This document shows, piece by piece, positions 293-22,930 of a stretch of 64,000 nt of DNA (its first letter is position 1; the number at the start of each line of letters is the position of its first letter). Under the pieces are notes generated by a model. That model had not been told where the DNA came from and ran no database searches. It saw only the letters and a list, made by a program, of their open reading frames with translations. The translations under genes were made by a program, and so were the position numbers. The stretch comes from Phycisphaerales bacterium (GTDB taxonomy: Bacteria; Planctomycetota; Phycisphaerae; UBA1845), in the NCBI GenBank assembly GCA_020639095.1, contig JACKHH010000005.1, forward strand, positions 56,574 to 120,573, given 5' to 3'.

Positions 293-551
293 CCTTTGGA
301 ATTGGCGCAGAGTTTTATCGGGCAAACTTTCGGCCTAATCGCCGCTCACATCACGAGTTAAATCTTCAATCCAAAATCAGCCACCGCGCTAGAATTCGGC
401 GGGTAAATCGGAGAGGCGTGAATTTCTCGTCGAGGTGCCCGAGCGCTGCGTTCGCGCTCCTGACGCTCGACGATGCCCGGCGGTGATGGTGCCGCCCGGC
501 AGTGTCAGATGGCGGCGTGAAAAGCCGCCCCGACTGCAAAGGGGGTCGAGA

Positions 552-1481
552 ATGGGCCTGTCTCGTCGTGGTTTCTTCCACACGCTGGGCGTCGTGGGGG
601 GCGGGACGCTCGCCAGCGCAACCTGCGCACGAGCCTCATCTGCCGGTCCGCAACGCGACCATTCCAACGACATGGGTGTGCTCGTCGATGTCACCAAGTG
701 CATCGGGTGTCGCCGCTGTGAGTACGCATGTCAGGAGGCGGCAGGGTTTGATCCCCCCGATATCGAATCATTCGAGGACAAGTCGGTGTTCGATGAGCAG
801 CGCCGACCAGTTGCACGCAGCCACACGGTGATCAACCGCTACAGCCGGCCCGACGGTTCGGGCCCGGTGTACAACAAGTTCAACTGCCTGCACTGCCTCG
901 ATCCCGCGTGTGCGTCCGCGTGTCTGGTCAGTGCATTCACCAAGAACGATACCGGACCGGTGGTGTACGATCCGAGTCGCTGCATGGGTTGTCGCTACTG
1001 CATGGTGGCGTGTCCGTTTGAGATTCCCACATACGACTACGACTATCCGCTGACGCCGCAGGTGCGCAAGTGCAACCTGTGCGCTCATCGTGTACCCAGC
1101 GAGCAGGAGTTGCCCGCGTGCGTGAAGATCTGCCCGGCAGAGGTGATGACCTACGGTCGGCGCGGTGATCTGCTCGAACTCGCGCACGAACGCATCGCGA
1201 ACAATCCGGACGTATACATCGATCACATCTACGGCGAGCACGAAGCCGGGGGCACGAGTTGGATGTGGATTTCCAACGTGCCCTTCGAGGAAATCGGTTT
1301 CCACAAAGTTGACAGCAAAGCGCCGCCGCGACGCACCGAGGCCATTCAGCACGGTGTTTTCAAGAATTTCCTGCCGCCGCTGATGTGGTACGGACTGCTC
1401 GGCGCGGCGATGTGGTTGACGCGGCCTGAGAAGAACGACGAATCGAAAGAGGGCGACCAGCACGCGGAGGTTCAATCGTGA
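552..1481 (+). CDS. Tat-exported 4Fe-4S ferredoxin-type subunit, NrfC/PsrB/HybA-like iron-sulfur protein
   Basis: AAAGGGGG ribosome-binding site at 539-546 and ATG at 552. Twin-arginine signal SRRGFFHTLGVVGGG. Several Cys clusters (CIGCRRCEYAC, CLHCLDPACASAC, CMGCRYCMVACP, CNLCAHRV...C..CP). The stop overlaps the next gene's start (1478). Confidence 0.85.
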   Translation: MGLSRRGFFHTLGVVGGGTLASATCARASSAGPQRDHSNDMGVLVDVTKCIGCRRCEYACQEAAGFDPPDIESFEDKSVFDEQRRPVARSHTVINRYSRPDGSGPVYNKFNCLHCLDPACASACLVSAFTKNDTGPVVYDPSRCMGCRYCMVACPFEIPTYDYDYPLTPQVRKCNLCAHRVPSEQELPACVKICPAEVMTYGRRGDLLELAHERIANNPDVYIDHIYGEHEAGGTSWMWISNVPFEEIGFHKVDSKAPPRRTEAIQHGVFKNFLPPLMWYGLLGAAMWLTRPEKNDESKEGDQHAEVQS

Positions 1482-2674
1482 GCGCGCATCATCATCCACC
1501 CCAGCCGATGAACCAGAAGCTGATCACGCCCGGCGTGCTGGTGCTGCTGATCCTGACCGGGATCGGTGTGTGCTTTGCGATCTGGCGTTTCATTTTCGGC
1601 ATCGGCTCGATTACAAACCTGGACAATCAGCATCCGTGGGGCATCTGGATCGCGATCGACGTGGCGACGGGCGTGGCGCTGGCGGCGGGTGGTTTCACAA
1701 CGGCTGCCCTGGCGCACATTTTCCATCGCGAGCACTATCACGCGGTGGTGCGGCCCGCACTGCTGACGGCGATGCTCGGGTACACGTTTGTGGGTCTCGG
1801 CTTGATGATTGACCTGGGTCGCTTCTACAACATCTGGCACCCGATTGTGCCGGCGATGTGGAGCGGTCACTCGGTGCTGTTCGAGGTCGGTTTGTGCGTG
1901 ATGTGCTACCTCACGGTGTTGTACATTGAGTTTTTGCCGATCGTGTGCGAGCGGTTGGAGAAGGAAGAGCGCTGGCCGCGTGTTCGCGTGTTCTGCATGA
2001 AGCTGAACGGGCTGGTCGGCAGGATCATGTTCTTCTTCATCATCGCGGGCGTCGTGCTCTCGTGTCTGCATCAGTCGTCGCTGGGCAACCTGATGGTGCT
2101 CGCCCCGTCGAAGATGCACGACCTGTGGGATACGCCGATTCTGTCGCTGCTATTCCTGCTTTCGGCATTCGCGGTCGGTTTTCCGATGGTGATCGTCGAG
2201 TCGATGGTGGCGTCGCGGTCGTTCAAGCTTAAACCGGAGATGCACATCCTCAGCCCCCTGGCGAAATTCGTGCCGGTATTGCTGGGGATATACCTTGGGT
2301 TCAAGGTGGGCGACCTCGCGGTGCGCGACAAGCTGAGCCTCATCGGCGAAGGCTCACCGCAGGCGACGATGTTCGTCGTTGAGATGGTGTTTGGGGTGAT
2401 CGCGCCGTTCATCATGCTGCTGTTCGCCCGCGTGCGAAAATCGCCGACGGGGTTGTTCATTGCGGCGCTCATGATCGTACTGGGCGTTGCGCTTAACCGA
2501 ATCAACGTATTCCTCGTCGCGTTTCAGCCGTTGTACCCGCAGAAGACCTACTTCCCGTCGATCGGAGAAGTGGCGGTGACCGTCGGTTTGATCTCGCTGC
2601 TGATCTTCTGTTATCGCGTCATCGTCAATTACTTCCCAGTTATCAGCCACCCCGGCCAAGCGAGAGCGACATGA
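1478..2674 (+). CDS. NrfD/PsrC-family polytopic membrane protein, quinol-interacting subunit
   Basis: 398 aa, highly hydrophobic with about 8-10 predicted TM helices. Translationally coupled to the upstream Fe-S gene and the downstream cytochrome gene (4-nt overlaps). This is the arrangement typical of NrfCD/PsrBC modules. Confidence 0.8.
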   Translation: MSAHHHPPQPMNQKLITPGVLVLLILTGIGVCFAIWRFIFGIGSITNLDNQHPWGIWIAIDVATGVALAAGGFTTAALAHIFHREHYHAVVRPALLTAMLGYTFVGLGLMIDLGRFYNIWHPIVPAMWSGHSVLFEVGLCVMCYLTVLYIEFLPIVCERLEKEERWPRVRVFCMKLNGLVGRIMFFFIIAGVVLSCLHQSSLGNLMVLAPSKMHDLWDTPILSLLFLLSAFAVGFPMVIVESMVASRSFKLKPEMHILSPLAKFVPVLLGIYLGFKVGDLAVRDKLSLIGEGSPQATMFVVEMVFGVIAPFIMLLFARVRKSPTGLFIAALMIVLGVALNRINVFLVAFQPLYPQKTYFPSIGEVAVTVGLISLLIFCYRVIVNYFPVISHPGQARAT

Positions 2675-3933
2675 ACGCCCGCAAGAGCATTGAACGGTTT
2701 TACTCGCGGCACCTGATCGGTTGCGTGTTGCTGATCGGAGGCTTGTCTCTGATCGGCGCCGTGCGTGCATCCGCACAGACGCAGGACAACGCACCGGTAG
2801 ATACGCCCGCACCCTCACCGCACGGCGCGGAGATCGCGGCGAAGGACTGCGCGAACTGCCACACCTGCGAGAAGCCGACGACCGACGAGCCGTGCTTGTT
2901 GCCGTGTTCGCGGCCCTCAACGGTAGCGATCGGACAGGCATTCAAGAGCAAAACAGGTCCCGACGTGGTGATCCTCGGTGAAATCGCGGACCGCTACCTC
3001 CCTGTGCCGTTCGACCACAAGGGGCACGCAGCCATGGCGGACATGACGCACGGTTGCGACGTGTGTCATCACTACACGCCGGAAGGGCTCGCGCACCCCG
3101 CGTGCAAGACGTGTCATGAGCTGAATCCCAAGCGCGTCGACATGCGCAAACCGAGCCTCAAAGGTGCGTATCACCGGCAGTGCATGAGCTGTCACCGCGA
3201 GTGGAGCGGAAACACCGAGTGCGGCGCGTGCCACGTGGAAACGGCGGACGCCAATGGCAACAAATCCGCGGTGCCGTCCAAGGACGACCTGATCGGCAGG
3301 ATGCACCCCCCGATTCAGGAACCGGAACTCCGCATTTACAAGACGAAGCTGGAAGGTCGCCCCAGCGCCGAAGTGCTCTTCCGTCACAAGGAGCACATTG
3401 ATCGTTATGGGATTTCCTGCGCGGAGTGCCATCGCGAGGACGGCTGCCAGCGCTGCCACAGCGATCAGAAGCAGCCCGAGCGCGTGCGTACGCTGGCCGA
3501 TCATCACAACCCGTGCGCTCGTTGCCACATGGATGTTGATCCGGCGAAAGAAGGCGCGAGTTGCGATGTGTGTCACTACGATCGGCGTACCGGCCCGCCG
3601 CGTCCATTCGAGCATCGCGTGAGCGATCTGCCGCTGATCAAGTATCACGCGGGTAACAGCTGTCGCGATTGCCACACGTCGCTGCCGTTCCAAAAGCTCG
3701 ATCGCGAATGCGGAACGTGTCACAAGGGCTGGTCGCAGGAGACTTTCGACCACGCAGCCGTTACCGGACAGACCCTCGACGACAATCACAAGGAAAACGA
3801 CTGTGCGGATTGCCACGTGGACCAGAAATACACGGTTCCGCCGGCGTGTGGTGAGTGCCACGACGAGGACGACGAACCGGTCATTCGTTTCCCCGATCGG
3901 CGGCCCGGTCCTTGGCGTCGGGCACCGTCGTAA
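2671..3933 (+). CDS. Multiheme c-type cytochrome, 13 CxxCH motifs, Sec signal peptide
   Basis: N-terminal signal LLIGGLSLIGAVRASAQ. Thirteen CxxCH sites counted by eye (CANCH, CDVCH, CKTCH, CMSCH, CGACH, CAECH, CQRCH, CARCH, CDVCH, CRDCH, CGTCH, CADCH, CGECH). Overlaps the NrfD-like gene by 4 nt. Confidence 0.85.
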   Translation: MNARKSIERFYSRHLIGCVLLIGGLSLIGAVRASAQTQDNAPVDTPAPSPHGAEIAAKDCANCHTCEKPTTDEPCLLPCSRPSTVAIGQAFKSKTGPDVVILGEIADRYLPVPFDHKGHAAMADMTHGCDVCHHYTPEGLAHPACKTCHELNPKRVDMRKPSLKGAYHRQCMSCHREWSGNTECGACHVETADANGNKSAVPSKDDLIGRMHPPIQEPELRIYKTKLEGRPSAEVLFRHKEHIDRYGISCAECHREDGCQRCHSDQKQPERVRTLADHHNPCARCHMDVDPAKEGASCDVCHYDRRTGPPRPFEHRVSDLPLIKYHAGNSCRDCHTSLPFQKLDRECGTCHKGWSQETFDHAAVTGQTLDDNHKENDCADCHVDQKYTVPPACGECHDEDDEPVIRFPDRRPGPWRRAPS

Positions 3934-4173
3934 CTTCAATTGCCAACTAACCTAGCGGCGATTCTCGTGTCTCCCTGTGAAAAGGCGGCGCGCGGTGCGC
4001 CGCCTGCTGGGGTGTTTGGCCCGCGCCGGTCGATCTTTACGGGCTCGTGGGCGCGTATTATGATCCCGGCAGTGCCGGAGTGGATTTGTGGACACGGTTA
4101 TGATGTGAAGATCACGAACCGTGGAGTGTCGACAACCGTCAATCGAAATAACAAAAGCAGAGGAGGCACGAAC

Positions 4174-4848
4174 ATGAGATCGATCCGGGTTATGGCAATC
4201 GTGGGACTGGTCGCCGCACTCGTGTGCGCGATGCAGTGGTCAACAACACCGGCGCAGGCGGGCGAGGGCACGACGATCTCGTCAGCGGCCGTCATCGCTG
4301 TGCTGGCCAGCGACGACAAGTACGAGTTCGAGGGCTCGAAGTCGTGCAAGAAGTGCCACATCAAGACATACAAGTCGTGGGAAGATACGCCGCACGCGAA
4401 GGCGCTCGAAACCTTAAAGCCGGGCAACGCCACCGAAGAGAAGGAAAAGCACAACCTCGATGCGGCGAAGGACTATTCGACCGATGAGAAGTGCCTCGCC
4501 TGCCACACCGTCGGTTACGGCAAGGCCGGTGGCTACGCGGTTCCCGACTCCGAGGACAAGAAGGCCGTCAAGGACGCTGAAGAGCGCGCGGGCGTGGGTT
4601 GCGAATCGTGCCACGGCGCGAGCAGCGGCTACATGGACCTGAAGGCCGAGATCAAGAAGGAAAAGCGTAAATACAAAACGTCGGAGCTGACGGCGCTTGG
4701 TCTGGTCGTGCCGACGGCTGAGACCTGCACGAAGTGCCACACCGAGGATCACCCGACGTTCGATCCGGAAGACAAGTTCGACTTCGACAAGATGAAAGAG
4801 AAGGGCCTGCACGAGATGGAAGGCCTGGAGCTGCGCGAGGACGAGTAA
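4174..4848 (+). CDS. Periplasmic tetraheme c-type cytochrome
   Basis: AGGAGG at 4161-4166 and ATG at 4174. Signal peptide MRSIRVMAIVGLVAALVCA. Four CxxCH sites (CKKCH, CLACH, CESCH, CTKCH). The ORF-track start at 3940 is a spurious 5' extension. Confidence 0.8.
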   Translation: MRSIRVMAIVGLVAALVCAMQWSTTPAQAGEGTTISSAAVIAVLASDDKYEFEGSKSCKKCHIKTYKSWEDTPHAKALETLKPGNATEEKEKHNLDAAKDYSTDEKCLACHTVGYGKAGGYAVPDSEDKKAVKDAEERAGVGCESCHGASSGYMDLKAEIKKEKRKYKTSELTALGLVVPTAETCTKCHTEDHPTFDPEDKFDFDKMKEKGLHEMEGLELREDE

Positions 4849-4894
4849 TCGCGTCCGCGACGCGGTTCACGCAGCAAGTTGTGACACCATCGGC

Positions 4895-4930
4895 GGCAGG
4901 GTTTGCAAGAGCAGACCCTGCCGTTTTTGT
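4895..4930 (+). terminator. Rho-independent terminator closing the 552-4848 cytochrome operon
   Basis: GGCAGGGT-(12 nt)-ACCCTGCC stem followed by GTTTTTGTG. Confidence 0.7.
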
Positions 4931-5059
4931 GTATCGGGTGCCAGCCGAGCGGTTGACGCGCGGTTGCCTGGATCGGTTCGAGGCGGTAGGGACAATTGGT
5001 GGTTGTAGCGCAAGAATCGGTTCTGCAGTCGCATATCGGTTCGAATTTCGCGGCGAGTC

Positions 5060-5299
5060 ATGGATAAGACGAGATTGCAGAATCTGCGGACGCAGTCGAT
5101 TCGAGCGTTGCCAGTTTGCGCAGTATTGCTGGTCTTGGTTGCGGGATTGCTGTTCGTCATCGGTCGGTATGTGACGATTCCGAGGTGGCTTGCCGCCGCA
5201 ATGTTGGGCGTGGGGATATTCACCGTTGCAGGCGATGCGATCAACATCGTTTACCTGACGCGCAGGCTGCGGCGCGTTGATCGCCGCGATACGGAATAG
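5060..5299 (+). CDS. Small hypothetical membrane protein (79 aa, 2 TM)
   Basis: ATG-initiated ORF with two hydrophobic helices (LPVCAVLLVLVAGLLFVIG, AAAMLGVGIFTVAG). Weak ribosome-binding site. Could be a spurious ORF. Confidence 0.3.
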   Translation: MDKTRLQNLRTQSIRALPVCAVLLVLVAGLLFVIGRYVTIPRWLAAAMLGVGIFTVAGDAINIVYLTRRLRRVDRRDTE

Positions 5300-5344
5300 C
5301 CATGCGTTACGCAGGAGAGCAGGGGAGACCGACCACGGTCGTCG

Positions 5345-6478
5345 CTACGGCAACCCGATTCCGATGGCATACAGGCTGATGTGCTTCTCGCCGAGGCTGT
5401 TGGCGACGAAGAGGTAGTATTGTGCCTCGAAGTTGTCGGGCACCAGTGCAGCGATGCCTGGCGGCAACGATTCGGCGACTGCGACGCCGACCGGCATGGG
5501 CGTGGCGCCGATGCCTTCATCTTCGCCGAGAAGCATGAGCAACTGGCCCTGCGCGTTGAACACGTGTACGCGGGAGAATTCGGGGTCGGCGACAAAGATG
5601 ACGCCATCCGGTCCCACCGCGAGGTGCCGGGGTTTTCCCATGTCGCCGTAACGATCGCCGGGCTGGCCCATGCTGATAAGCGGGCTGCCATCGGGCGTGA
5701 AGCCCTGGACCCGGCTGTTCATCATGTCGGAAACGAAGATGTTGCCCGCGCCGTCGACCGCGACACCCGCAGGGTAGTACAGCTTGCCCGCGTCGCTGCC
5801 CACGCCGCCGAACGACGAACGGGCTGCACCGCCGGGTATATCGAACACATCGATCTGGTGTGCCGCAACATCGGCGGCGAGCAGGGCTCCTGGGCGCGCC
5901 GCGATCGCGACGGGTCGGTACGCATCGCGACCGGCATTGAAGCGGTGCGGGTCCGCCCCCGGGGCGATGGCGACGATGTCGCCGCGATCCGCGTCCGCGA
6001 CGTACACGTTCCCATCGGCATCGGCGGCAACCGCCACCGGCTTTCCAAATGCGAGGTCGTCACCATTACCGAGCTTGCGAGCCTTACCGCTTTCCAAATC
6101 CCAATCATGCACCACGTTGGCGCCGGGGTCGCAGATGTACAGGTGATTGTCGCGGTACGCGATGCCGGCGGGGCGGGCGACGAACGGGCTCGCCAAACCG
6201 CCGCGCAGTGTGTCGGTCCAATGTTCGCCCACCCGCACCAGATCGTCCAGCGCGTTGAACGTTTTCAGGTGGACGACGTGGGCTGTTGCGTTCTTCGGGA
6301 AGTACGCGAGATCAGCCGTGATCGGTCGCGAAGCACAGCCCGTCAGAATCGAGACGCAAAGAGCGCCCGCGAACAGGCTCAAGCAGCGCGAACGGGCTCG
6401 CGACGTGGAAGACTTGATTGCGGATCGATCGGCGATGGGGCGGTTTCGCACGGTTATTTCCTGTGGCAGGTGAGGCAC
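5345..6478 (-). CDS. NHL-repeat (six-bladed beta-propeller) lipoprotein
   Basis: Lipobox LTGCAS after a hydrophobic signal. Repeated NHL-type blades (YICDPGANVVHDWD, VYVADADRGDIV, IFVSDMMNSRVQGF, IFVADPEFSRVHVF). Its start overlaps the end of the upstream cytochrome gene. Confidence 0.8.
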   Translation of the reverse strand: MPHLPQEITVRNRPIADRSAIKSSTSRARSRCLSLFAGALCVSILTGCASRPITADLAYFPKNATAHVVHLKTFNALDDLVRVGEHWTDTLRGGLASPFVARPAGIAYRDNHLYICDPGANVVHDWDLESGKARKLGNGDDLAFGKPVAVAADADGNVYVADADRGDIVAIAPGADPHRFNAGRDAYRPVAIAARPGALLAADVAAHQIDVFDIPGGAARSSFGGVGSDAGKLYYPAGVAVDGAGNIFVSDMMNSRVQGFTPDGSPLISMGQPGDRYGDMGKPRHLAVGPDGVIFVADPEFSRVHVFNAQGQLLMLLGEDEGIGATPMPVGVAVAESLPPGIAALVPDNFEAQYYLFVANSLGEKHISLYAIGIGLP

Positions 6479-7113
6479 AGGGCGCTGCCCGCGTTGCTCA
6501 TCACCAGCATGTGGTTGTAGCCGGATTCGTTATGCGGATCGTGGCACGAGAGGCACTCGACATATCCGTCGGGCAGCACGACCGCGCCGCTCGAAGTCAC
6601 GCGCGTGACCGGGTGATAGTCGTGCCCAAACCCGGGATAGGGAATTCCCACCGGATGGTTCGACCGGCCATGGCCCGCGACGCGCGTGCTCGGATGGAAC
6701 GTGTTCACCGGGCGCTCTTCGGAGATCGTCGGGATCATGTCGCTGGCGAGCGCACCGTCGTGGCAGCGCAGGCAAGTCAGCGTACCGGCACCCGGGTCGA
6801 AAATGCGACCCGCAAGGCGACGTCTGCCCGTGGGGTCGTTCGTCGTGGACATGTCGCGACGATTGAGCCGGCGCGTTTGCGCGGCTGTCGTGCCGAAACG
6901 GCGCGAGAGGTCGGCATTGGGATTCCACAACGGCCCCTGCTTGGGTGGTGTTTCCTGGTGGGGCGTGTGGCACGCGCCGCAGTTGTCATCCTTGGACCAC
7001 GCGGCGTTACTGAAATCGTGTTTGGAACCCTTGATGCCCGCCGTCGCGATGCCGGCGATCAGCAGCAGCGCACCCGGCAGGACGAGTTTCGAAATCCTAG
7101 CCGCTCGCTTCAT
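6454..7113 (-). CDS. Tetraheme c-type cytochrome (periplasmic)
   Basis: ATG at 7113..7111 sits in an ATGA overlap with the stop of the upstream 12-heme gene. Signal MKRAARISKLVLPGALLLIAGIATA. Four CxxCH sites (CGACH, CLRCH, CLSCH, CLTCH). The ORF-track start at 7380 is an antisense 5' extension. Confidence 0.8.
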   Translation of the reverse strand: MKRAARISKLVLPGALLLIAGIATAGIKGSKHDFSNAAWSKDDNCGACHTPHQETPPKQGPLWNPNADLSRRFGTTAAQTRRLNRRDMSTTNDPTGRRRLAGRIFDPGAGTLTCLRCHDGALASDMIPTISEERPVNTFHPSTRVAGHGRSNHPVGIPYPGFGHDYHPVTRVTSSGAVVLPDGYVECLSCHDPHNESGYNHMLVMSNAGSALCLTCHRK

Positions 7114-8918
7114 CGGTTCGCTCCCGTAATGCTCCTGCGGGTGCTCGTAACCCCTTTGGCTGAGCCGGTGCCCGCGTACGGATACCCAATGTGCGTCGAG
7201 CCGTGGCAGACCAACGTGCAGTTGCCCGCCAAACGACCCGTGTCTTCGTATTGCAGCAGACGACCAGTGCCGGTATCGGCTGCACTGACCACTGAAAGAT
7301 CGAAGTTGATCAGGTTGCTGTGATTGTTCGCATTGCCCTGACCGCGATAGACGCCGTGCGCGTCGTGGCACACACTGCACGGCGTGCGGAAGTCGACGAC
7401 GTGCCGGCGATGCAGCGGGAAGCTCTCATTGTTGAGGATGCTGTCGCGGCTGTGGCAACTGTAGCAGAGCGAGTACGCGTCAGCGCTTTCCGCGGTGAAG
7501 TCCGCTGTTTCATAGTTGCGAACGAGCAGCGGTTCATACAGCGAACCGTGCGGACCGTTGGCCCCGGTACCACCGGCGAAGCGCGCGTTGTCGCTGTTGT
7601 GGCAGTCGATGCACGTCACTGTGCTGCCGACACGCAGCGGGGCGATGAGGCTTACCACGTCGTTGTTGCGCCGTGGCCCAGCGACCGGGTGGAATGACGG
7701 GTTCGACGTCTGGAACTCGAGTCGCGTGTTCGTCTGCGTGACCTGCCGCGAATTCGCCTGTCGCGGCCGCAGCACACCGTCGCTGTGGCACTTGAAGCAG
7801 ATCTCGTAGCCGAACTGGGCTTCATCGATCGCGCGTCCGGTGATGGTGATGCCGTTCACACCGACGTTCGGACCCTTCACGGTCTGGCCGAGTGTGCCCT
7901 GCACGGCGCCGATGTTCCGCTCACGCGAGGCATGCGGATTATGGCAATCGACGCACTCGGCGTGCCGTGACATGTTAAAGGGCGTTTCCTCCGGATCGTG
8001 GATGCCGGTGCGCCAGCGGCTGTCGTGATTGCTGCGCTTGCCGAGATCGGCAGCGATGTTGTAACGCGCGACGTCGCCGCTGTGGCAGTTCAGGCAGTTG
8101 TCCTCCTCACGCTGGAAACGCAGCAGCCGTTCGCGCTGCGGCGCGGAGTGGATCTTGTGGCAACTCGCGCACGCGTTGTCCGCGACCGTCGAATACTTGA
8201 GTCGCTCACGCGGATCGACCGCACGCCCGCTGATCGTCTTCTTGCTCAGACCGTGCGCGCCGTGGCGCCAGCCGTTCATCTCGTGGCAGGAGACGCAGAT
8301 CGCGGACATCTGATCGGTGACGCGAAGGAACTCGCCGAGTTCGTTGTTGTGCGGATCGTGGCAGGTCGTGCAATGTACTTCGGCATGCACGCCCAGCGGC
8401 AACTCGCGCGAGACCACCTCGGGCGGACGGATTTCGCTGTCGACGTTGGCAAGCTGACGATCGTAACGGAACCCGATGGGGTGATCGTCTGAGAGGTCGT
8501 TGGTGAGATCGCTGTTCGCGTCGAACCGGCCCGGGGGCATGGTCCGCGCGGTCATGACGATCGGCTCGGTGATCGGACGCGAAAGCACGTTGCCCAGCGC
8601 GAGCGAACCGTCGTGACAGCTCAGGCACATTTTCGACGGGCCCGACGGCTGATCGATGCGCGCGTCGGTCGTCGAGCTTTCGTAGATGCGGTAGTAAAGC
8701 TGCGGATCCTCACGGTTCCACAGCGGCGTTTGCGGGGCTGCGTTGTGCGGCGTGTGGCAGAAGATGCACACCTCGTCCTCGTGGACAGCCCGGATACGAT
8801 TCGGCCCGCGCGCTGAGAGATCGTGCGGCGAGTTGACCACGGACTCGTCCGCGTAGGCGGCTGACGCGATCAGCCACACGATTCCACAGCCCATTGCTCG
8901 AAGCGCGACGTGCTTCAT
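7110..8918 (-). CDS. Dodecaheme c-type cytochrome (602 aa), Sec signal
   Basis: Signal MKHVALRAMGCGIVWLIASAAYA. Twelve CxxCH sites counted (CIFCH, CLSCH, CTTCH, CVSCH, CASCH, CLNCH, CVDCH, CFKCH, CIDCH, CYSCH, CSVCH, CTLCH). ATGA overlap with the NHL gene upstream (8915-8918). Confidence 0.85.
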   Translation of the reverse strand: MKHVALRAMGCGIVWLIASAAYADESVVNSPHDLSARGPNRIRAVHEDEVCIFCHTPHNAAPQTPLWNREDPQLYYRIYESSTTDARIDQPSGPSKMCLSCHDGSLALGNVLSRPITEPIVMTARTMPPGRFDANSDLTNDLSDDHPIGFRYDRQLANVDSEIRPPEVVSRELPLGVHAEVHCTTCHDPHNNELGEFLRVTDQMSAICVSCHEMNGWRHGAHGLSKKTISGRAVDPRERLKYSTVADNACASCHKIHSAPQRERLLRFQREEDNCLNCHSGDVARYNIAADLGKRSNHDSRWRTGIHDPEETPFNMSRHAECVDCHNPHASRERNIGAVQGTLGQTVKGPNVGVNGITITGRAIDEAQFGYEICFKCHSDGVLRPRQANSRQVTQTNTRLEFQTSNPSFHPVAGPRRNNDVVSLIAPLRVGSTVTCIDCHNSDNARFAGGTGANGPHGSLYEPLLVRNYETADFTAESADAYSLCYSCHSRDSILNNESFPLHRRHVVDFRTPCSVCHDAHGVYRGQGNANNHSNLINFDLSVVSAADTGTGRLLQYEDTGRLAGNCTLVCHGSTHIGYPYAGTGSAKGVTSTRRSITGANR

Positions 8919-10015
8919 GACCTGTTCCCGAGATAGTCAAACACCTGGATGCGGTGATTCGCGGAATCCGCCACCCAGATTCGATTGTTTTCGTCGATCG
9001 CCAGACCTGCGGGCAGGGCGAACTTGCCCGCGGTGTTGCCTTCCTGGCCGAAGGCGATCAACAAGGCTCCATTCTGATTGAACACCTGTACGTTCTCGAA
9101 CTGCGCGTCAACAACGTACAAATGCCTGTCGCCGTCGAACGCGACGCCCTTGGGCAGCGCGAAGTCCCCGGCAGCGTCGCCCTTGCGCCCGATCGCGCCG
9201 ACGAAATTGCCGTCGAGATCGAGTAGCTGCACGCGGAAGTTCGCGGAATCCGCTACTGCGATGCGCTCCGCGCCGTCCCAGGCGATGTGCGTGGGGCGGT
9301 TGAACGCGCCTCCGTCATTGCCGGGCCTGCCGATGCGGCGAATCAGTCTACCCGACGGGCTGAAGACGACGATGTCATTCGTGCCGCCGTCGACGACGTA
9401 AAGCTGATCACGCGTCGCGACGTATGCCAAGCCCACCGGCCTGTCCAACACGTCCGCACCGAAACGATGCCGCATATCACCGGCTTCGTCAAACTCAAGC
9501 ACTTCGCGGCGCTTGGCATCGGTAACAAAGATGCGACTGCCCACGAAACAAGCGCCGATCGGCGCGCCCAAGCGCTGGTCTTCCCAGCCAGTGACGAGGC
9601 GGTGCGTTCGCTCCACCAGGTTCACAATGTGCACGCCCGCAACGCCGACGTCCGCAACCGCGAGCAAGGGGCCCTTGCGTGCGAGCGAATGCGGCGACGA
9701 AAACTTGATCGGGCGACGGTTGCCGCGAAGCGCGGCTTGAAACGCTTCGCCACCGGACTTGCCGGCTTCCAGGTCGTCGCTACCGCTCAGCACGCCGACA
9801 AAACGAATGCGTGCGGGCTCGGGCGGTTTCGGCCAGACGCGCGTTTCGCCGCGCTGGCTGAAGAGTTCGCCCTTGGGTTGCGCGCATCCGGTGAACAACG
9901 TTGCGGCCAATACCGCTGCGAAAGCCCTCGTTGTTCTCCGCTCCCTGACAGTCGCGGCTCGGATTTTGCTTGCTCCTGCGCGCATCTGTTTGAGATTAGT
10001 TCCGCGCCAGGACAT
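8915..10015 (-). CDS. NHL-repeat beta-propeller lipoprotein
   Basis: Lipobox LFTGCAQ. NHL blades (IFVTDAKRREVLEFD, LYVVDGGTNDIVVF, IAVADSANFRVQLLD, LYVVDAQFENVQVFN, IWVADSANHRIQVFD). Overlaps the end of the beta-barrel gene by about 20 nt. Contains one copy of the 35-nt repeat (9931-9965). Confidence 0.8.
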   Translation of the reverse strand: MSWRGTNLKQMRAGASKIRAATVRERRTTRAFAAVLAATLFTGCAQPKGELFSQRGETRVWPKPPEPARIRFVGVLSGSDDLEAGKSGGEAFQAALRGNRRPIKFSSPHSLARKGPLLAVADVGVAGVHIVNLVERTHRLVTGWEDQRLGAPIGACFVGSRIFVTDAKRREVLEFDEAGDMRHRFGADVLDRPVGLAYVATRDQLYVVDGGTNDIVVFSPSGRLIRRIGRPGNDGGAFNRPTHIAWDGAERIAVADSANFRVQLLDLDGNFVGAIGRKGDAAGDFALPKGVAFDGDRHLYVVDAQFENVQVFNQNGALLIAFGQEGNTAGKFALPAGLAIDENNRIWVADSANHRIQVFDYLGNRS

Positions 10016-12128
10016 TTTCGAAATCGCGCCTCAACCGGAAATACACACCAACGTCGTCTTCCTCGCTGCCGGGTACGTCCAAGCGGTCGTACTCCACCAC
10101 GAATTCCGCGGTGAGTTCGCCGATCGCGTAATCAAAACCAGCCGACACGTCCCACGCGTTCGTCGTGCCGCGCACCGAGTCGTCCTGCCAACGGTAGGTG
10201 ACGCGCTCAAACGACGAGAGGCTTTCACGCAGGTACCAGCGGTGGTCAAGCTGAAGGTCGAGCCATGACACGTTGCGCTGATCCACGCCGCCTTCAAAGA
10301 AGAAGCGCGAGAACCGCACGGACGCGTCGAGCGAATGTTCCGACGTCTGAATGAAGCGATATAGACCGTTGAGGTGGAAGGCGTCGAAGGGCTCGACGGT
10401 GTCGTCGTAGATTTCGTACTCCGCGCCCAGCGTATACTTGGGCTGCTCGTAGCGAATACCGATGCGGTGGTGGTTTGTGCGATCGGCGTAGCGGGCGAAG
10501 CCGCGTGAGTAATCGGCTTCCTGGTTGCGGTACGAGAGGCGATAGTACGGCGTCAAGCCGTTGTCGAAACGCTGTTCGAGGCTGAAGTCGACCCGCATGG
10601 TGTCGAGCTTGCCGTCGGCTGGCGTCGAGTATTCGTAGTCAATCAGAATCGTTTCGTCATCGAGAATGCGCCCGGTCGCGATGCGGGAAATCTGCGTCCA
10701 CTGGCCGACCGTGACAATGAGGTAGTCGCGCAATGGCTGATATACCCGGCGATTCGCGGAATCGGTGACCACGATCGTGCCCGGAATCACGTTCGCATGT
10801 CGCAGCGTGATCTGCGTCGGGCCGCGGAACGTGGCGGACTCATTGAGCACCACGCGCGAACCGTTGTCACCGTTGACATCCTCCGTGTCGTACGCCAGTG
10901 CGAGGTTCGCCCACAACTGACCGTAGGGATTCTTGCGGTTGTACTGCCAATCAATCAATGCACCGTACTGCGTCGTTTGCACGTCGTTGTCAATGTCCTC
11001 ATACAGCCCGAACACGTCGACGGTCGTGGTAAGGTTCGTATAAAGCTGATGAATAAGCTGGAAGTCGGCGCGGTGCGTCGAGATGTCGTAGGCTTCGTAT
11101 TTCTCGCGATTGAACTGGTAGCGGTAGATCGTTGAAAGGTTGTCGTTGTGCTTCAACGTCAACTGCGGGCCGATTTCGAAGATGTCGCGGGCGAAGTCGC
11201 CGCTCTCTTCCTGCCAACGCATCCGCGTCCACAATTCATTCGCGTCGTCGGTACCGAAGGTGAACCGATCGTCGACAATGATCAGGTCGCGCGTGGTTTC
11301 GTAGGCATCGCGCAGGCCCTGATATTCCTGCTTGTTTTCCGCGTGTTCATACGTCGCGTTGATCGTGTGGTTTCGCGAGACCGTCCAGTCGACGCCATAG
11401 TTCAGCGTGCTGTCGGTGTAGTGCTCGTCGTCGTAGCGATCGCGATTGCCCGTGCGGTCGGTTTCGAGGTAGTCGTACCGCAGGTGCATCGAGAGGTCGT
11501 CCGCCACGTAGCTCCAGTCGGTACCGAAGCCGGTCTGGCGTTCGTCGAGCGACGGCTGGAAGCGGCGATTGATGCGATCGTCGCGGCGGATGGCGTACAC
11601 CGAACCCGAAAGCGGTTTGCCCTGGAAGAAGTTCATCCGCGCGTCGTAGAGCAGCAGCGTTCCGCTGTCATCGTCGCTGTAGTCCGCGGTGGGGCTGCGT
11701 TCGGAAAAGTGACTTTGCGTCAGGGCAAAGCTGAGATCGGCTTGGAAGGTGATGAAGCTTGGGTCGATGATCGTTCCGCCAAGACCAAGGCCGAAGCGCT
11801 CTTCGATATTCACATCGCGATTGGTTTGTGACCACTGCCGCCGGCCTTGCCTGCGCTGGCGAAGCTCGGAACGCACGCGCGTCTGATCAAACTGGGTTTC
11901 GAGTTCGAGGTAGCCGTCGAGGCGGTCGAGTGAGAAGTAACGCGGGCGTTCGCTGTCGTTGACCTCGTCGCTTTCATCCTGCGCAGCCGCGGAGGTCGCT
12001 GCAATAAGCAGCGTTGCGACGAACAGTGAAAAAGGGAACCGAACGGGGTTAGACCGCATGCCCATGATCGCTGCGTGCATCACATTCCTTAGAGCCATGG
12101 TCCGCGCCAAACAGACTCGTAGCCGCAC
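9996..12128 (-). CDS. Outer-membrane beta-barrel protein (about 690-710 aa), porin-like component of a putative porin-cytochrome conduit
   Basis: Probable start at the internal Met (about 12059) giving signal MRSNPVRFPFSLFVATLLIAATSAAAQ. The rest is rich in alternating aromatic/polar residues (Y, W, D, T, R) with no long hydrophobic helices, as in large beta-barrels of MtrB/OmbB-like size. It is the first gene of the minus-strand cytochrome/NHL operon. Confidence 0.6.
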   Translation of the reverse strand: MRLRVCLARTMALRNVMHAAIMGMRSNPVRFPFSLFVATLLIAATSAAAQDESDEVNDSERPRYFSLDRLDGYLELETQFDQTRVRSELRQRRQGRRQWSQTNRDVNIEERFGLGLGGTIIDPSFITFQADLSFALTQSHFSERSPTADYSDDDSGTLLLYDARMNFFQGKPLSGSVYAIRRDDRINRRFQPSLDERQTGFGTDWSYVADDLSMHLRYDYLETDRTGNRDRYDDEHYTDSTLNYGVDWTVSRNHTINATYEHAENKQEYQGLRDAYETTRDLIIVDDRFTFGTDDANELWTRMRWQEESGDFARDIFEIGPQLTLKHNDNLSTIYRYQFNREKYEAYDISTHRADFQLIHQLYTNLTTTVDVFGLYEDIDNDVQTTQYGALIDWQYNRKNPYGQLWANLALAYDTEDVNGDNGSRVVLNESATFRGPTQITLRHANVIPGTIVVTDSANRRVYQPLRDYLIVTVGQWTQISRIATGRILDDETILIDYEYSTPADGKLDTMRVDFSLEQRFDNGLTPYYRLSYRNQEADYSRGFARYADRTNHHRIGIRYEQPKYTLGAEYEIYDDTVEPFDAFHLNGLYRFIQTSEHSLDASVRFSRFFFEGGVDQRNVSWLDLQLDHRWYLRESLSSFERVTYRWQDDSVRGTTNAWDVSAGFDYAIGELTAEFVVEYDRLDVPGSEEDDVGVYFRLRRDFENVLARN

Positions 12129-12340
12129 GCATACTCCGTCCTCATTTCATCGGAAACGTATACGGGCGTTGATAAGCCTCTGCAAGCATAAACTGCGCGA
12201 GATTGTCTTTGCGATACTGATGAACGGGTCGAAGCCAGGGCGTACGCCGACCACCCGAGGTGAACGCCGAGACTTAAGACTCTTGCCGCGGCGAGGCGGC
12301 GACCGATTCTAGTATGGTTCTGGAAATTCGCTGCTTGAAA

Positions 12341-12369
12341 TTGACAACAATGTGCCTATGTTAGCATAG
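12341..12369 (+). promoter_or_regulatory. Candidate promoter with operator-like palindrome upstream of the pentaheme lipoprotein cytochrome gene
   Basis: TTGACA at 12341-12346. The palindrome CTATG-TTAG-CATAG at 12356-12369 overlaps a TAGCAT -10-like hexamer. AAAGGAG ribosome-binding site at 12391-12397 precedes ATG 12405. Confidence 0.35.
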
Positions 12370-12404
12370 CCATCAGATCAGCGCCGCCGAAAGGAGTCCG
12401 TGGC

Positions 12405-12992
12405 ATGCGCAAACTTCTCTGCGCGTTGGCAGTTTCTTCCTTCGCAATCGCCGTCGTGCTGGGCTGCGCTGCCGATACGCGCGACCGGCTTACCCGGTTC
12501 TTCTTCGAGGTTCCGGACGAGAGCGCGGAAGCGTCGGCTGAGAAGTCGTTCCCCACGCAGACCCCGCCACCGGAAATCAAGTTTCCTCCGCCGCGTTTCG
12601 CGTCATTGCACGATCCGTACGTCGAAAAGCAGTGCGACGCGTGCCACGACATGTCAGCGAAAATGGAGGTCAACAAGGATTTGCAGGCCTCGTGCGGCGA
12701 GTGTCACGACGACTACTTCGACAACGATGAAATCAAGCACGACCCGGTGGCTGAGGGCGATTGCCTGATGTGCCATTTGCCGCATCGCAGCGAGTACCCG
12801 GCGTTGCTGCGCCAGCCGGTGCTCGCAACCTGTTCAGATTGCCACGACGAACCGGCAGACCTGAGCGAGCCCGCCCATGCGGGCAAGGGCGCGGAGAACT
12901 GCACCACGTGCCACGATCCGCACTTCGGCGGCGAGCACTTGCTCAAAGCCGACTACAAAGGGCCAAAGGCCGCGGACGAGTCGGACGAATAA
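12405..12992 (+). CDS. Pentaheme c-type cytochrome lipoprotein
   Basis: Signal plus lipobox AVVLGCAAD. Five CxxCH sites (CDACH, CGECH, CLMCH, CSDCH, CTTCH). Good ribosome-binding site. Confidence 0.85.
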
Positions 12993-13072
12993 ATAAGATG
13001 AGCGGTACGCGGGCAGGTTTCGCCCGGGCGTGCCCAGCACTGCGTTCGCAGAAAACTCGACGGAGATTCGCC

Positions 13073-13648
13073 ATGTTGAAGAAGTCGGCCAACGGTTCAT
13101 CACGCAAAATGGTTCGTAAGTCCTGCGCTGTTGCGGCGCCCGTCGCATTGTTGTTTGCCGCGATGGTGCTCTGCGCCGGGTCCAGTGGCTGCGGAGCGAA
13201 CGCCGACGACATCCTCTTTCAAAGCCTGACCGCGACCGGCAACACCGCGTTCGATCTGCTGCTCACCGAGTTCGCCAACCAGGTGGCGGACGCCCTCAAT
13301 CCCGCACCGGTTGATGACGGTAACAATGACGGTGATGGGGACGGCGACGGTGATGGAGACGGCGATGGTGATGGAGACGGAGATGGCGATGGTGACGGTG
13401 ATGGGGATGGCGACGGCGGCGACGTGATTCCGATGGGTGACGCGGTCGCCGGCGAAGCAACCTTTGTGGCCGATGGCTGCAACCTGTGCCACGGCGATGC
13501 GGGACAGGGCGTATCGGCCCCCGCGCTCGCGGGCAACAATGAGTTGAGCGATCTCGAAACCCGTTTCGGCGGCGGGGCGAGCCACTTCGGCAAGACGCTG
13601 AGCGATCAGGATATCGAAGACGTCGCGACCTGGCTGCTCTCGTTGTAG
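13073..13648 (+). CDS. Monoheme class-I c-type cytochrome with signal peptide and a poly(Asp-Gly) linker
   Basis: ATG at 13073 (alternative ATG at 12998). Signal ...VALLFAAMVLCAGSSGC. (DG)n tract of about 30 residues encoded at about 13327-13420. A single CNLCH heme site followed by a Met-containing C-terminal segment. Confidence 0.7.
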   Translation: MLKKSANGSSRKMVRKSCAVAAPVALLFAAMVLCAGSSGCGANADDILFQSLTATGNTAFDLLLTEFANQVADALNPAPVDDGNNDGDGDGDGDGDGDGDGDGDGDGDGDGDGDGGDVIPMGDAVAGEATFVADGCNLCHGDAGQGVSAPALAGNNELSDLETRFGGGASHFGKTLSDQDIEDVATWLLSL

Positions 13649-13842: not shown

Positions 13843-16800
13843 CTACATGCCCGCGTCAAACGCAATTTGCAACTTCGCGAAGTCCTTGAGATCGACGTGG
13901 GCGTCGCGATTCAGATCGGCATCGTGGCAGCCCGGCAGCACTTCCGCAACCGGGCCAGTCAGGCAGTCTTCCAGCAACGCGAAGTCGGCAAGGTCCACGT
14001 CGCCGTCATCGTCGATGTCGCCCGCGAGCAGCACGCCGTATGCCTCGAACTCGTTGAGTGAACAGCCATTCGCGGTCGCGCCCACGTGGGCGTAGAGGCG
14101 GATGTATCGTGCGATTGCGTGCATATCGATCGACTCGGTCGCGCCGGCACCGTCCGTCGTGGCGTAGACATTCGTCCACGTGTCACCGTCGTCCGAAACG
14201 TCGATGTCGTACACCTGCGAATAGGCATCCGCCCATTTGAGCACGACCTGATCGACTTCGTAACGAGCACCCAGGTTGACTTCGAGCCACTGCGGATCAC
14301 CGTCTTCGCTTGCCCATGCCGTGCCCGCGTCGCCGTCAACCGCCAAATCGCCGACCAGCGCCATGCTGTTGACCGACGAGAGTTCGACGTCATCGAAGAG
14401 CACGTCAGCGCTTGAGCCCGCGATGGCGCCGCCCGCCAGTCGCAGCATGACCAACGCCTTGTCCGCGCCGGCAGGCGCCACGACATTGGTAAATCCAAAG
14501 TTGGCGTAGCTCTCGGTCAATCCGCCGCCGATGTCCAGGAACCCGGTCCCGCCAACAACGCCGCCGCCCGCATTCAGCCACTGCATGTTCATCTGCGCGA
14601 CAACGCTGACGCCCAGCGTGCCCAAACGGCGTGCCTTGGCTGACAGGTTGTACGTCTCGCCTGCAACGATCGAACCATCGGGCGTGATCTGCTGTGCGAG
14701 CGCTGCGGGACCGCCATCGGCGGCACCGACCACGCTGAGCTGGACGTGCCACGCGCCGCTGTTCGGGTTTGACGATTCGCGTGTGGCGGTCGCCGTCGAA
14801 CTGCCCGCGGGGAAACCGAGCAACGACCAGTTGTCGGCGTCGCTGCCGCTACCGTCTTCGAAGCCGCCGTTGAGCAGGAGCACGCCACTGGCTGCGGTCG
14901 ACGTGGTGACCGGCTTGCCCAGGGCAATGTTCTGCGGTGGATTGGTGACTTCGACCTGCACCTGATCGCTGCCCATCAAGCCGAGATTGTCGGTGACGGT
15001 CAATTCAAAAACGTAGGTGCCTTCGTAGAGGTCTTCGACGTCGGTCGTTGCCTGCGACGGATCGGTGATGGTCGCGGTCGCGGGGCCGCTGATCTGCGCC
15101 CACGCGTATGCAACGATGGTTCCGTCCGCGTCCCAGCCGCTACCGGTCAGCGTCGCGCTGTCGGTCGGCAGGGCGATGACCTGATCAGCGCCCGCGTCCG
15201 CGGTCGGTTCGGGTGTGGCCACTGTTACCGTCGCGCTGTCGCTGTCGGTGAGGTCGTCATCGTCCGTCACCGTCAGGCGGAATATGTAAGTGCCCTCGAC
15301 GAGATTGGACACGCCGAGCATCGCGGTGTTCGCGTTGGTGAGCGTTGCGTTCGACGGGCCGCTGATCTGCACCCAGGTAAAGTCGGTGATGACTCCGTCG
15401 TCGGTGCTCTGCGAACCGTCGAGCGTCGTGCTGTTGGTCGGGAGGATCAGCACTTGATCATCGCCGGCGTCCGCTTCGGGCAGGCCCGCGCCGACCGGTA
15501 ATGCATCACCGCCACCGAGCAGGCAGACATCGTCGAACTCGATATCCGAAATCGGTCCGTTGACGCCGAGAACCTGGAACAGCATGCTCACCTCGGTGAG
15601 ATTGACCGCGTCGATGATGTCGGCCATGGGGATTTCCAAAACGTGCCATTGACCGTCGCGGGCGAATCCGTACGGGTCGTTGCCCGCGGCGAATTCGATC
15701 CACTTCTGGTCGATGTCGTCGACGTTTCCGCTGCGCATGCCCAGGCGGAACGTTGTATTCGACGTCGTCTTCATCGCCAGGTGCAACGTGCTTTCGGGGA
15801 AGCGGAACGCGGAAAGGTTGTGCTTGATCGTCGGCGTGAAGGCCGCACCGAACCAGGTCAAACCGGGCACGGAGTAGAGCGACACACTTTCCGCGCCTTC
15901 GTACGGATCGTGCGATCCTTCCAGCAAGGTATGCTCCCAAATGTAGAAACCACCATCCGGGCCAAGGTCGTAGTTGCCCGCCGTCTTGTGCGCCGGGTCT
16001 TCGGTGAAGATACCGAAGCTGCCGTTCTCCGGCGTGGGACGTTCGACGCTCGGCGTCCAGTACATGTTGTCGATCGCGAACTGGAACGGGCCAGCCGATG
16101 GGTCGCCCGCGATCATGAACAACTGGCTGACCGTGTTGAAGTCGGTATTCAGAAACTTGTTCAACGGTACCACAACGTTGTGCCAGTTGCCGTCGCGCAC
16201 CAGACCGTAGTTGGTTACGCCATCCTCGAAGAGCACCCAGGCTTCACCGGACGTCGCGCTCTTGAGTCCGATCTTGAAATTCTCGGTGGACGTGGTCTTC
16301 ATCTGGAAGTGCAGGTAGCCGTCGGAGTAGTTCTTCAGGTTGCGATCGAATTGCGTGGAAAGCACGCCCATTCCCCACCAGGCGCCCGGAGCGGCTGACA
16401 TGCTCCAAACCTCGCTGCCTTCGTATGGGGTTTCCGCAACTTCGGTGAGGTTGTTCCAGATGAACAGGTCGGCATCGGTCTCGTACTGCACGTGGTTGTT
16501 GACCGGTGTGGTCTCGGTGAAGATTCCGAAGTCACCCGTCTCCTGCACGTCGTCGCCGTAGAACAGTTCCGTATCGCCGTTGTCGTAAATGCGGATGTAA
16601 TCGATGTACATCCTGCCGGGGAAAGGAGCGGTGATCGCGCCCGGATCGGTGATTTCGATGAAGTTCCATCCGCCGACCGCGACGTTCGTCAGGATGAACA
16701 TCGGCTCGTGGAACTCTTCCAGGTCGTCCGCCACCGGATCGCTGATGTCCAGCGACCAGTAGAGATCGCCATCGACGTAGGTCCTGATTTCCGTCGGCGT

Positions 16801-19803: not shown

Positions 19804-19916
19804 TCCTGAATACGGAGCAACCAGCCCGACGAGTTTACTGCGCAGCAGCGCAAAGCATTACACGCGGAGGACACGCGCTGCCACCAGCCAAATGCACGCG
19901 GCGGCTGGCAATAACC

Positions 19917-22859: not shown

Positions 22860-22930
22860 CGGCCCGGTATCGTTGACGAATCCGCGCGATTTCGCAACCG
22901 CTAAATCACCGCCGGCGGCCCGTTCGCCGA

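Follow-up and report, generated by a model that had tools for sequence, protein, structure and literature searches.

A compact uet/omcE-type module of multiheme cytochromes, beta-propeller lipoproteins and a large barrel in a Phycisphaerales bacterium

The window analysed here is a 64,000 nt stretch of DNA from a Phycisphaerales bacterium (Planctomycetota), in which a cluster of multiheme cytochrome genes at positions 5345-12992 was studied. The cluster is a compact and widespread variant of the known uet (undecaheme electron transfer) or omcE-type module, here in the Planctomycetota. Taking the whole mechanism proposed below into account, it is fairly probable that it encodes an outer-membrane extracellular electron transfer (EET) module of the OmcE/uet kind. 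A first-pass annotation of the same DNA had suggested a possibly undescribed module following the logic of Mtr/Pcc. The novelty did not hold, as the core matches the published uet cluster and resembles the minimal omcE cluster. The idea of outer-membrane multiheme cytochromes associated with a very large barrel was retained, and EET remains a sensible role, but the OmcE identity of the cytochromes had been missed. With this identity, a plain Mtr-like conduit is no longer the likely mechanism, and a conduit, or an assembly site, serving a cytochrome that polymerises becomes the more likely one.

On the open reading frame (ORF) map the minus-strand operon comprised genes for a large beta-barrel, a first NHL propeller lipoprotein (NHL1), a 12-heme cytochrome (the dodecaheme), a 4-heme cytochrome (the tetraheme) and a second NHL lipoprotein (NHL2), with a pentaheme lipoprotein gene transcribed divergently. 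The UetA-like tetraheme (6454-7113, minus strand) has four CxxCH motifs. Its longest ORF covers 6454-7380, but with the true start, the ATG at 7113, the protein has 219 aa and a signal peptide ending in IATA/GIKGSKHD. It aligned with the D. soudanensis OmcE chain 9YUQ with an E-value of 6.9e-16 and 36% identity (residues 10-219 of the query, 5-218 of the chain), and with G. sulfurreducens OmcE 7TFS with an E-value of 1.3e-6 (residues 10-219 and 9-232, respectively). The 9YUQ chain is the OmcE subunit of a nanowire bundle solved by cryo-electron microscopy (bioRxiv 10.1101/2025.10.22.684050). In a four-way alignment of the tetraheme, the first part of the dodecaheme, 7TFS and 9YUQ, the eight heme cysteines, the four motif histidines and the four distal histidines were all invariant. 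The presence of four conserved distal histidines is the OmcE-family criterion of Petersen et al. (bioRxiv 10.1101/2025.10.22.684050). As in OmcE, the tetraheme is a secreted protein in the range of ~200-240 aa with exactly four CxxCH motifs, full-length homology and the four distal histidines. The large outer-membrane barrel and the beta-propeller lipoprotein that the same authors use as a neighbourhood filter are encoded in the same operon. By these sequence features the 219-aa tetraheme can be placed in the OmcE nanowire-subunit family, and it is a candidate polymerising nanowire subunit.

The dodecaheme (7110-8918, minus strand, 602 aa) contains 11 CxxCH motifs and one CxxxxCH motif (CTLVCH), that is 12 hemes. 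Residues 1-214 (8277-8918, minus strand) correspond to a head made of the signal peptide and an OmcE-like tetraheme module, and residues 215-602 (7110-8276, minus strand) to an octaheme tail with seven CxxCH motifs and the terminal CxxxxCH. Residues 15-213 matched 7TFS with an E-value of 3.5e-28 and 9YUQ with an E-value of 5.5e-26, both better than the scores of the tetraheme. Judged from homology, the dodecaheme combines an OmcE-like tetraheme head with a fused octaheme tail. The polypeptide exits the head where the fourth heme motif ends, which is also the point of termination of OmcE. A search of PDB sequences gave no relative of the tail, which is homologous across phyla with E-values down to 1e-100. 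In Geothrix, other Acidobacteriota and Nitrospirae the tail was found as a separate 7-heme protein of ~400 aa following an OmcE-like tetraheme of ~230-240 aa. The loci showing this split form (L011, L013, L015, L016 and L025, from Nitrospirae, Thermoanaerobaculia and Geothrix) provide a natural fission/fusion pair; L015 is Geothrix fermentans DSM 14018, a cultured Fe(III) reducer.

For comparison, one genome per GTDB species was scanned with the OmcE alignment. This confirmed at least 450 stretches, of which the 80 best loci were retained. The dodecaheme was 66-83% identical across Phycisphaerae, and shared 35% identity, from end to end, with a gammaproteobacterial cytochrome that has 11 CxxCH motifs (L004, E 9e-93). 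Among 36 proteins resembling UetJ, the 11-CxxCH protein of the uet cluster, all 24 heme cysteines were at least 94% conserved, and the distal histidines of the head (His32, 58, 146 and 190) were 100% conserved, as was His222, ten residues past the fourth motif. A "ninth histidine" stopper, discussed as a criterion by Petersen et al. (bioRxiv 10.1101/2025.10.22.684050), was considered for H178 and H182 and rejected as a general feature; both residues were invariant in Phycisphaerae and present in only 17% of the UetJ-like proteins across phyla. No publication linking UetJ to OmcE was found in the searchable literature. Evolution within Phycisphaerae is much faster in the tetraheme than in the head of the dodecaheme, with distances of 0.41-0.47 compared to 0.16-0.21. 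A fast tetraheme is in keeping with an exposed subunit of a polymer, and a conserved dodecaheme with a part buried in the core. The validated OmcE proteins were nearest to the free-standing tetrahemes of uet-like clusters and not to the dodecaheme heads.

The UetC-like barrel gene lies at 9996-12128 on the minus strand. Its longest ORF encodes 710 aa with a Sec signal peptide, and the NCBI annotation (H6817_03555) gives 694 aa from a start at 12080, 16 codons downstream of the longest-ORF start. The protein has no heme motif and a single cysteine, and its Sec-type signal ends in LLIAATSAAA/QDES. An AlphaFold2 model built with 63 homologs reached a predicted local distance difference test score (pLDDT) of 87.3 and a predicted template modelling score (pTM) of 0.71, and was all-beta, with ~30 long antiparallel strands. 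A protein of beta-barrel-like composition had been foreseen in the first-pass annotation; the model agrees with this view and is at odds with an alpha-helical or soluble protein. A fold search with the model returned outer-membrane barrels only, the top template modelling score (TM-score) being that of MtrB, and the family profile found no sequence relatives in the PDB. Out of 1.84 billion proteins, the family collected 1,818 representatives at 50% identity with E<=1e-3, and 1,229 with E<=1e-10. It has no Pfam or NCBIfam model, and such clusters are therefore easily overlooked in annotation. A small beta domain is inserted in the barrel at residues ~434-500 (10629-10829, minus strand; short strands at 453-501 in the model). 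This insert is the segment best conserved between phyla, with the invariant or near-invariant motifs RNRN and VTD..NRR.Y..G.DY, and the sole strong segment in a BLASTP comparison with a gammaproteobacterial barrel covered residues 317-499 of the window barrel. The insert may act as a docking or plug element.

NHL1 (8915-10015, minus strand, 366 aa, lipobox LFTGC) matched the Pfam NHL repeat with an E-value of 3e-24 and corresponds to a six-bladed propeller, with NHL domains of the PDB recovered at an E-value of 4e-66. Its gene is conserved as the partner located immediately before that of the dodecaheme: in other loci, the propellers encoded directly upstream of UetJ-like genes were closer to NHL1 than to NHL2 in 36 cases out of 36. 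NHL2 (5345-6478, minus strand, 377 aa, Pfam NHL E 1.7e-17, lipobox ILTGC, exact start uncertain) is the partner of the tetraheme, and a propeller gene adjoins the tetraheme gene in most loci. Neither propeller has a heme motif. The pentaheme lipoprotein (12405-12992, plus strand, 195 aa, five CxxCH motifs, lipobox VVLGC) has MtrA-like heme repeats, with a local match to chain A of 6r2q (MtrA) at an E-value of 2.3e-7. In most phyla a 5-heme gene encoding ~190-230 aa is found directly upstream of the barrel gene; in Phycisphaerae it is divergent from it. Beyond the right edge of the cluster as first delimited, at ~13073-13648 on the plus strand, a monoheme class-I cytochrome c lipoprotein is encoded (Pfam Cytochrom_C and Cytochrome_CBB3, one CNLCH motif). 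This protein of ~191 aa has a long acidic (GD)n linker and a C-terminal class-I cytochrome c domain. Its gene is kept after the pentaheme gene in the Phycisphaerae loci L001/L049, L065 and L040 (E 1e-16 to 1e-20), which probably makes it the seventh component of the module in this class.

The six ORFs, their coordinates and the divergent position of the pentaheme gene were the same as in the first-pass annotation, and the two ATGA overlaps on which its proposal of translational coupling was based, at 8915-8918 and 7110-7113, are present in the sequence. The barrel and NHL1 ORFs share 20 nt, and the longest ORFs of the tetraheme and NHL2 share 25 nt. Lipoboxes were seen in NHL1, NHL2 and the pentaheme, and ordinary signal peptides in the barrel, the dodecaheme and the tetraheme. 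Pfam detected NHL repeats and "paired CXXCH" motifs on the cluster proteins, and gave no match for the barrel. The intergenic region between the barrel operon and the divergent pentaheme operon extends from 12129 to 12404 on the ORF map. Apart from a strong hairpin behind the plus-strand operon to the left, described below, a promoter and terminator scan of the cluster yielded no signal exceeding chance expectation; one weak sigma-70-like site on the plus strand, at 12335-12362 in the divergent region, was within this expectation.

The profiles of the barrel, the propellers and the OmcE module were mapped on all 80 loci, profile iteration being based on hmmsearch alignments. In 25 loci an OmcE-like tetraheme was accompanied by a protein of ~540-700 aa with ~11 CxxCH motifs and an OmcE-like head, by a homologous barrel and by at least two NHL genes. 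The complete set was present in 22 of the 50 loci of at least 15 kb. These loci span at least 12 phylum-level groups: Phycisphaerae, other Planctomycetota, Verrucomicrobiota, Desulfobulbaceae, Calditrichota, Ignavibacteria, Bacteroidota, Chlorobiota, Myxococcota, Acidobacteriota, Nitrospirota, Campylobacterota, and Alpha- and Gammaproteobacteria. With single-sequence phmmer searches, all six window proteins recovered counterparts in the complete-set loci. The genes travel as three pairs, pentaheme with barrel, NHL with dodecaheme, and tetraheme with NHL, and the order of the pairs is permuted between phyla. The gene set is far from a chance assembly. In CP070744.1, a complete Phycisphaerales genome, the same six genes are syntenic with unrelated flanks, and the module is therefore a self-contained unit. 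The synteny that the first-pass annotation had recommended looking for in other genomes was found there and in many other phyla. The literature on Planctomycetota and OmcE, in the part surveyed, contained no description of OmcE-type clusters in this phylum. Giant cytochromes were observed next to some OmcE-like genes, with 46 CxxCH in 2393 aa at 10728-17909 of L045 (metagenome-assembled genome (MAG) TamC13-38), and 42 CxxCH in 1027 aa at 15553-18636 of L025 (Geothrix sp.).

We propose that electrons of the quinol pool would reach the periplasm, possibly via the NrfCD-type proteins and the cytochrome b/c fusions encoded in the vicinity. The pentaheme lipoprotein would then be the point of electron entry to the barrel, and both together would form the periplasm-facing half of the conduit, because of the analogy with the adjacency of mtrA and mtrB. 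The electrons would cross the outer membrane from heme to heme along the dodecaheme, itself held in or on the barrel. Since the ten hemes of MtrA cover ~8 nm, a chain of eight would be long enough to traverse an outer membrane. Outside the cell, the OmcE-like tetraheme subunits would receive the electrons, and they would most likely polymerise by inter-subunit His-heme ligation of the OmcE type. The tail of the dodecaheme would take the position of the "next subunit", leaving the free face of the head to dock onto the tetraheme polymer. The propeller lipoproteins are most likely cytochrome-specific assembly or scaffold factors and would not be redox proteins, since heme motifs are absent from them. 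In its strongest form, which we put forward as tentative and somewhat doubtful, the UetJ-like 11+1-heme protein would be the root or terminal adaptor of OmcE-type nanowires, with the head, as an OmcE paralogue, docking to the polymer end by the same His-heme interface, and the chain running on from the heme-4 end, at the place of a following subunit, into the octaheme rod, which, through or on the barrel, would meet the pentaheme on the periplasmic side.

Two groups of neighbouring genes could connect the quinol pool to the module. On the left, an operon at 435-4848 (plus strand) encodes, according to Pfam and heme counts, an NrfC-like 4Fe-4S protein, an NrfD-like membrane protein, a 13-heme c3/c7 cytochrome and a c554-like tetraheme, and is followed by a strong hairpin at 4892-4925 with a 15-bp stem and a T-run. 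The operon has the appearance of a quinol:cytochrome oxidoreductase module and, by its adjacency, is a putative inner-membrane and periplasmic feeder. On the right, three multiheme proteins are encoded at 17716-24940 (minus strand; Pfam and heme counts), a 9-heme NapC/NirT-like protein and two CbcL-like proteins in which 19 and 11 hemes, respectively, are fused to a cytochrome b561-type domain; their domain architecture suggests quinol oxidoreductases. Between the cytochrome clusters, at 13843-17511 (minus strand), lies the gene of a secreted protein of 1222 aa with GH16, PKD, F5/8 type C and dockerin domains, which fits a polysaccharide-degrading lifestyle. The direction of electron flow is not fixed by the sequence. 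Outward flow, in which a heterotroph would reduce minerals, humics or partner cells, is somewhat more likely than uptake because of these quinol-side neighbours and of the GH16 hydrolase gene.

Uptake is kept open because of the conserved monoheme cytochrome c and of the uet precedent. In that case Fe(II) minerals, cathodes or partner cells would supply electrons that flow inwards to a periplasmic cytochrome c and then to an oxidase or reductase, as proposed for uet. We regard this as possible, on the less likely side. The closest described cluster, uet, comes from a cathode-oxidising autotroph and is also found in iron-oxidising Gallionella, a class-I monoheme cytochrome c is the usual feeder of terminal oxidases and is the conserved seventh gene in Phycisphaerae, and multiheme conduits are reversible in principle. 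The CbcL-like and NrfCD-like neighbours and the hydrolase rather fit an electron-disposing heterotroph, the MAGs of Phycisphaerae carry mostly reductive-type EET markers in a published survey, and carbon-fixation or oxidase genes were not seen in the examined part of the window. The barrel might also hold the pentaheme and/or the dodecaheme in a plain porin-cytochrome conduit, the tetraheme staying monomeric at the surface or in the periplasm. The position of the MtrA-like pentaheme gene next to the barrel gene, as mtrA adjoins mtrB, and the rank of MtrB as the top structural match by TM-score would agree with such a conduit devoid of polymer, and filaments have yet to be shown for a uet-type cluster. 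It is nevertheless unlikely, given that the tetraheme retains over its full length every heme ligand of the filament-forming OmcE. The proximity of validated OmcE to the free-standing tetrahemes, and not to the dodecaheme heads, also argues for a filament, and the rapid evolution of the tetraheme fits an exposed filament subunit.

The absence of heme motifs in the propellers would equally suit a machine in which the barrel and the propellers serve only for usher-like secretion or assembly, with electrons using another route. A porin-like assembly pathway comprising a prolyl isomerase, channel proteins and a beta-propeller protein has been proposed for OmcS nanowires (Shen et al. 2025, summarised in PMC13194489 and in bioRxiv 10.1101/2025.10.22.684050). 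We consider this version decidedly unlikely. The pairing of pentaheme and barrel and a 12-heme rod that is not a lipoprotein are what a conduit requires, and other porin-cytochrome genes were not seen in the examined part of the window; moreover, one barrel could both secrete and conduct, and the two functions are not mutually exclusive. Lastly, the propellers weakly matched two Pfam families, SGL/gluconolactonase-like and Vgb-lyase, which could evoke a periplasmic redox enzyme system where catalytic propellers (for example lactonase- or oxidoreductase-like) would be served by the cytochromes. Such a system is extremely improbable, as the matches reflect a generic six-blade similarity, the best PDB relatives, at E 4e-66, are protein-binding NHL domains, and the propellers co-occur with OmcE-family cytochromes and the giant barrel across phyla.

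Several observations weigh against the EET module with a polymerising tetraheme proposed here. The four distal histidines are necessary for polymerisation and are no proof of it, and filaments have been experimentally shown only for the OmcE of Desulfuromonadia. The physiological role of cytochrome filaments is itself debated (PMC11077965). The localisation of every component was predicted from signal sequences only. An AlphaFold2 model of the dodecaheme, heme-free and built from 63 non-diverse homologs, reached a pLDDT of 38 and was discarded. The flanking genes resembling quinol oxidoreductases are not kept beside the module in CP070744.1. The other points came from a direct comparison with two loci, L082 (Desulfuromonas versatilis AP024355.1, 5536-13169) and L083 (a related MAG, 645-8338). 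The window barrel was expected to be homologous to the 750-aa barrel of Desulfuromonas, and no homology was detectable, the E-values of hmmsearch being 0.1-0.4 and the hhalign probability 0.4%. Both loci are devoid of a UetJ-like protein and possess instead an 8-heme protein of ~330 aa with a weak match to the window.

The anchoring of nanowires, the entry of electrons into them and their secretion are stated open questions (PMC12307469; bioRxiv 10.1101/2025.10.22.684050). A single cluster with an OmcE subunit, an OmcE-headed fusion, a giant barrel and an MtrA-like pentaheme leads to a concrete and testable model of a rooted nanowire, and the hypothesis may be of interest in this respect. If it were true, one complex would be at the same time a porin-cytochrome conduit and the anchor and electron-entry point of a nanowire, in more than 10 phyla including Planctomycetota. 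The module is common in Phycisphaerae and occurs in many other phyla rarely considered electroactive, among them Bacteroidota, Ignavibacteria, Calditrichota, Verrucomicrobiota, Myxococcota and Acidobacteriota. Such a wider range of possible EET organisms bears on the cycling of iron, manganese and carbon in sediments.

With the MtrCAB and Pcc (OmaB-OmbB-OmcB) porin-cytochrome conduits, the window shares the logic of a barrel-insulated multiheme chain with a lipoprotein cytochrome partner. It differs from them by the presence of OmcE-family cytochromes and NHL propellers, and by a barrel of ~30 strands compared to 26 in MtrB. Membership in the families of these systems was considered and rejected. 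The MtrA/DmsE model TIGR03508 scored 49.5 bits on the dodecaheme and 41.6 bits on the pentaheme, under the cut-off of 192.2, in line with the first-pass opinion that the dodecaheme is unlike MtrA/OmaB. The barrel did not reach the threshold of the MtrB/PioB porin family. Matches to the MtrC/MtrF domain II/IV model were sub-threshold or local, which with the absence of a lipobox in the dodecaheme set aside the MtrC/OmcA surface decahemes. The NCBIfam models for MtrA/DmsE, MtrC and NrfB were all far under their cut-offs on the cluster proteins.

The first-pass annotation had also held that paired NHL propellers were not components of known conduits. This proved incorrect, as they are present in uet and in the minimal omcE cluster, and NHL proteins occur in the cytochrome clusters DFE_0448-0451 and DFE_0461-0465 of Desulfovibrio ferrophilus IS5 (PMC5815863; PMC9769857). 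Surveys with hidden Markov models have reported "DFE variants" and CbcL in MAGs of Phycisphaerae. The D. ferrophilus clusters, compared by description only, have no apparent porin or barrel, unlike the window. The osc (OmcS companion) cluster of Geobacter sulfurreducens, also compared by description, associates a nanowire cytochrome with channel-like and beta-propeller-like proteins that are required for folding, secretion and filament morphology (Shen et al. 2025, summarised in PMC13194489). In contrast to the window, osc has the hexaheme OmcS, of another cytochrome family, and a prolyl isomerase, whereas the window has the OmcE family and no prolyl isomerase.

The uetABCDEFGHIJ genes were described in Ca. 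Tenderia electrophaga and other Tenderiales, and in some Gallionella (bioRxiv 10.1101/2022.05.06.490989; PMC10734462). They encode a tetraheme (UetA), a prolyl isomerase (UetB), a 28-strand barrel (UetC), trihemes (UetD, UetE and UetG), a cupredoxin (UetF), NHL proteins (UetH and UetI) and the protein UetJ with 11 CxxCH motifs, and were proposed to act in electron uptake, having been defined in a cathode-oxidising autotroph (bioRxiv 10.1101/2022.05.06.490989). In that work UetA and UetJ were not linked to OmcE, and UetJ was said to have no other conserved domain (bioRxiv 10.1101/2022.05.06.490989). The core found in the window consists of homologs of UetA, UetC, UetH, UetI and UetJ, with a UetJ-like protein of ~600 aa and a barrel without Pfam match. 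The homology is strong for the tetraheme, the NHL proteins and the UetJ-like protein; for the barrel it is strong only with intermediate loci, and weak with loci of strict uet order (E 1e-6 to 1e-11). One locus, L075, shows the exact published order. An OmcE-like gene comes first (E 6e-18 to the window tetraheme), a SurA-like peptidyl-prolyl isomerase second, trihemes are present, and two NHL genes followed by a UetJ-like protein with an OmcE-like head stand at the end. An ORF of 618 aa without Pfam match was the only match of the barrel profile in this locus, with an E-value of 4e-6. Compared to uet, the region 5345-13648 of the window lacks the SurA-like prolyl isomerase (UetB), the c7 trihemes (UetDEG) and the cupredoxin (UetF), the window has no ccsAB/nrfG/bat genes downstream, and the gene order is permuted. 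The MtrA-like pentaheme lipoprotein and the monoheme cytochrome c lipoprotein are found in place of the missing parts. The uet host is an autotrophic gammaproteobacterium, and the window host a Phycisphaerales bacterium.

Filaments are formed by OmcE and by its homolog in D. soudanensis, and the corresponding clusters are recognised by their large barrels and propeller lipoproteins (bioRxiv 10.1101/2025.10.22.684050). OmcE homologs with nearby porins were reported in five phyla, Planctomycetota not included, and the minimal omcE cluster of Desulfuromonadia contains two multiheme cytochromes, two beta-propeller lipoproteins, OmcE and a large barrel (bioRxiv 10.1101/2025.10.22.684050). The gene content of the window matches it in kind. 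In the two Desulfuromonas-type loci, where the cluster sits between resB/ccsB and ffh, OmcE, both NHL lipoproteins (E 1e-28 to 1e-45) and a cytochrome related to the pentaheme (E 1e-18 to 1e-21) were homologous to the window, and the large barrel, as in the window, belongs to no Pfam family. The 8-heme cytochrome of ~330 aa was also observed beside some uet-like clusters of Desulfobulbaceae and other Deltaproteobacteria (L041, 15366-16355; L063, 18523-19518; L019, L020 and L014); no clear copy of it was found beside the window cluster. OmcE-associated clusters are thus of at least two types, a Desulfuromonadia type and a uet-like type, and the cluster of the window belongs to the latter.

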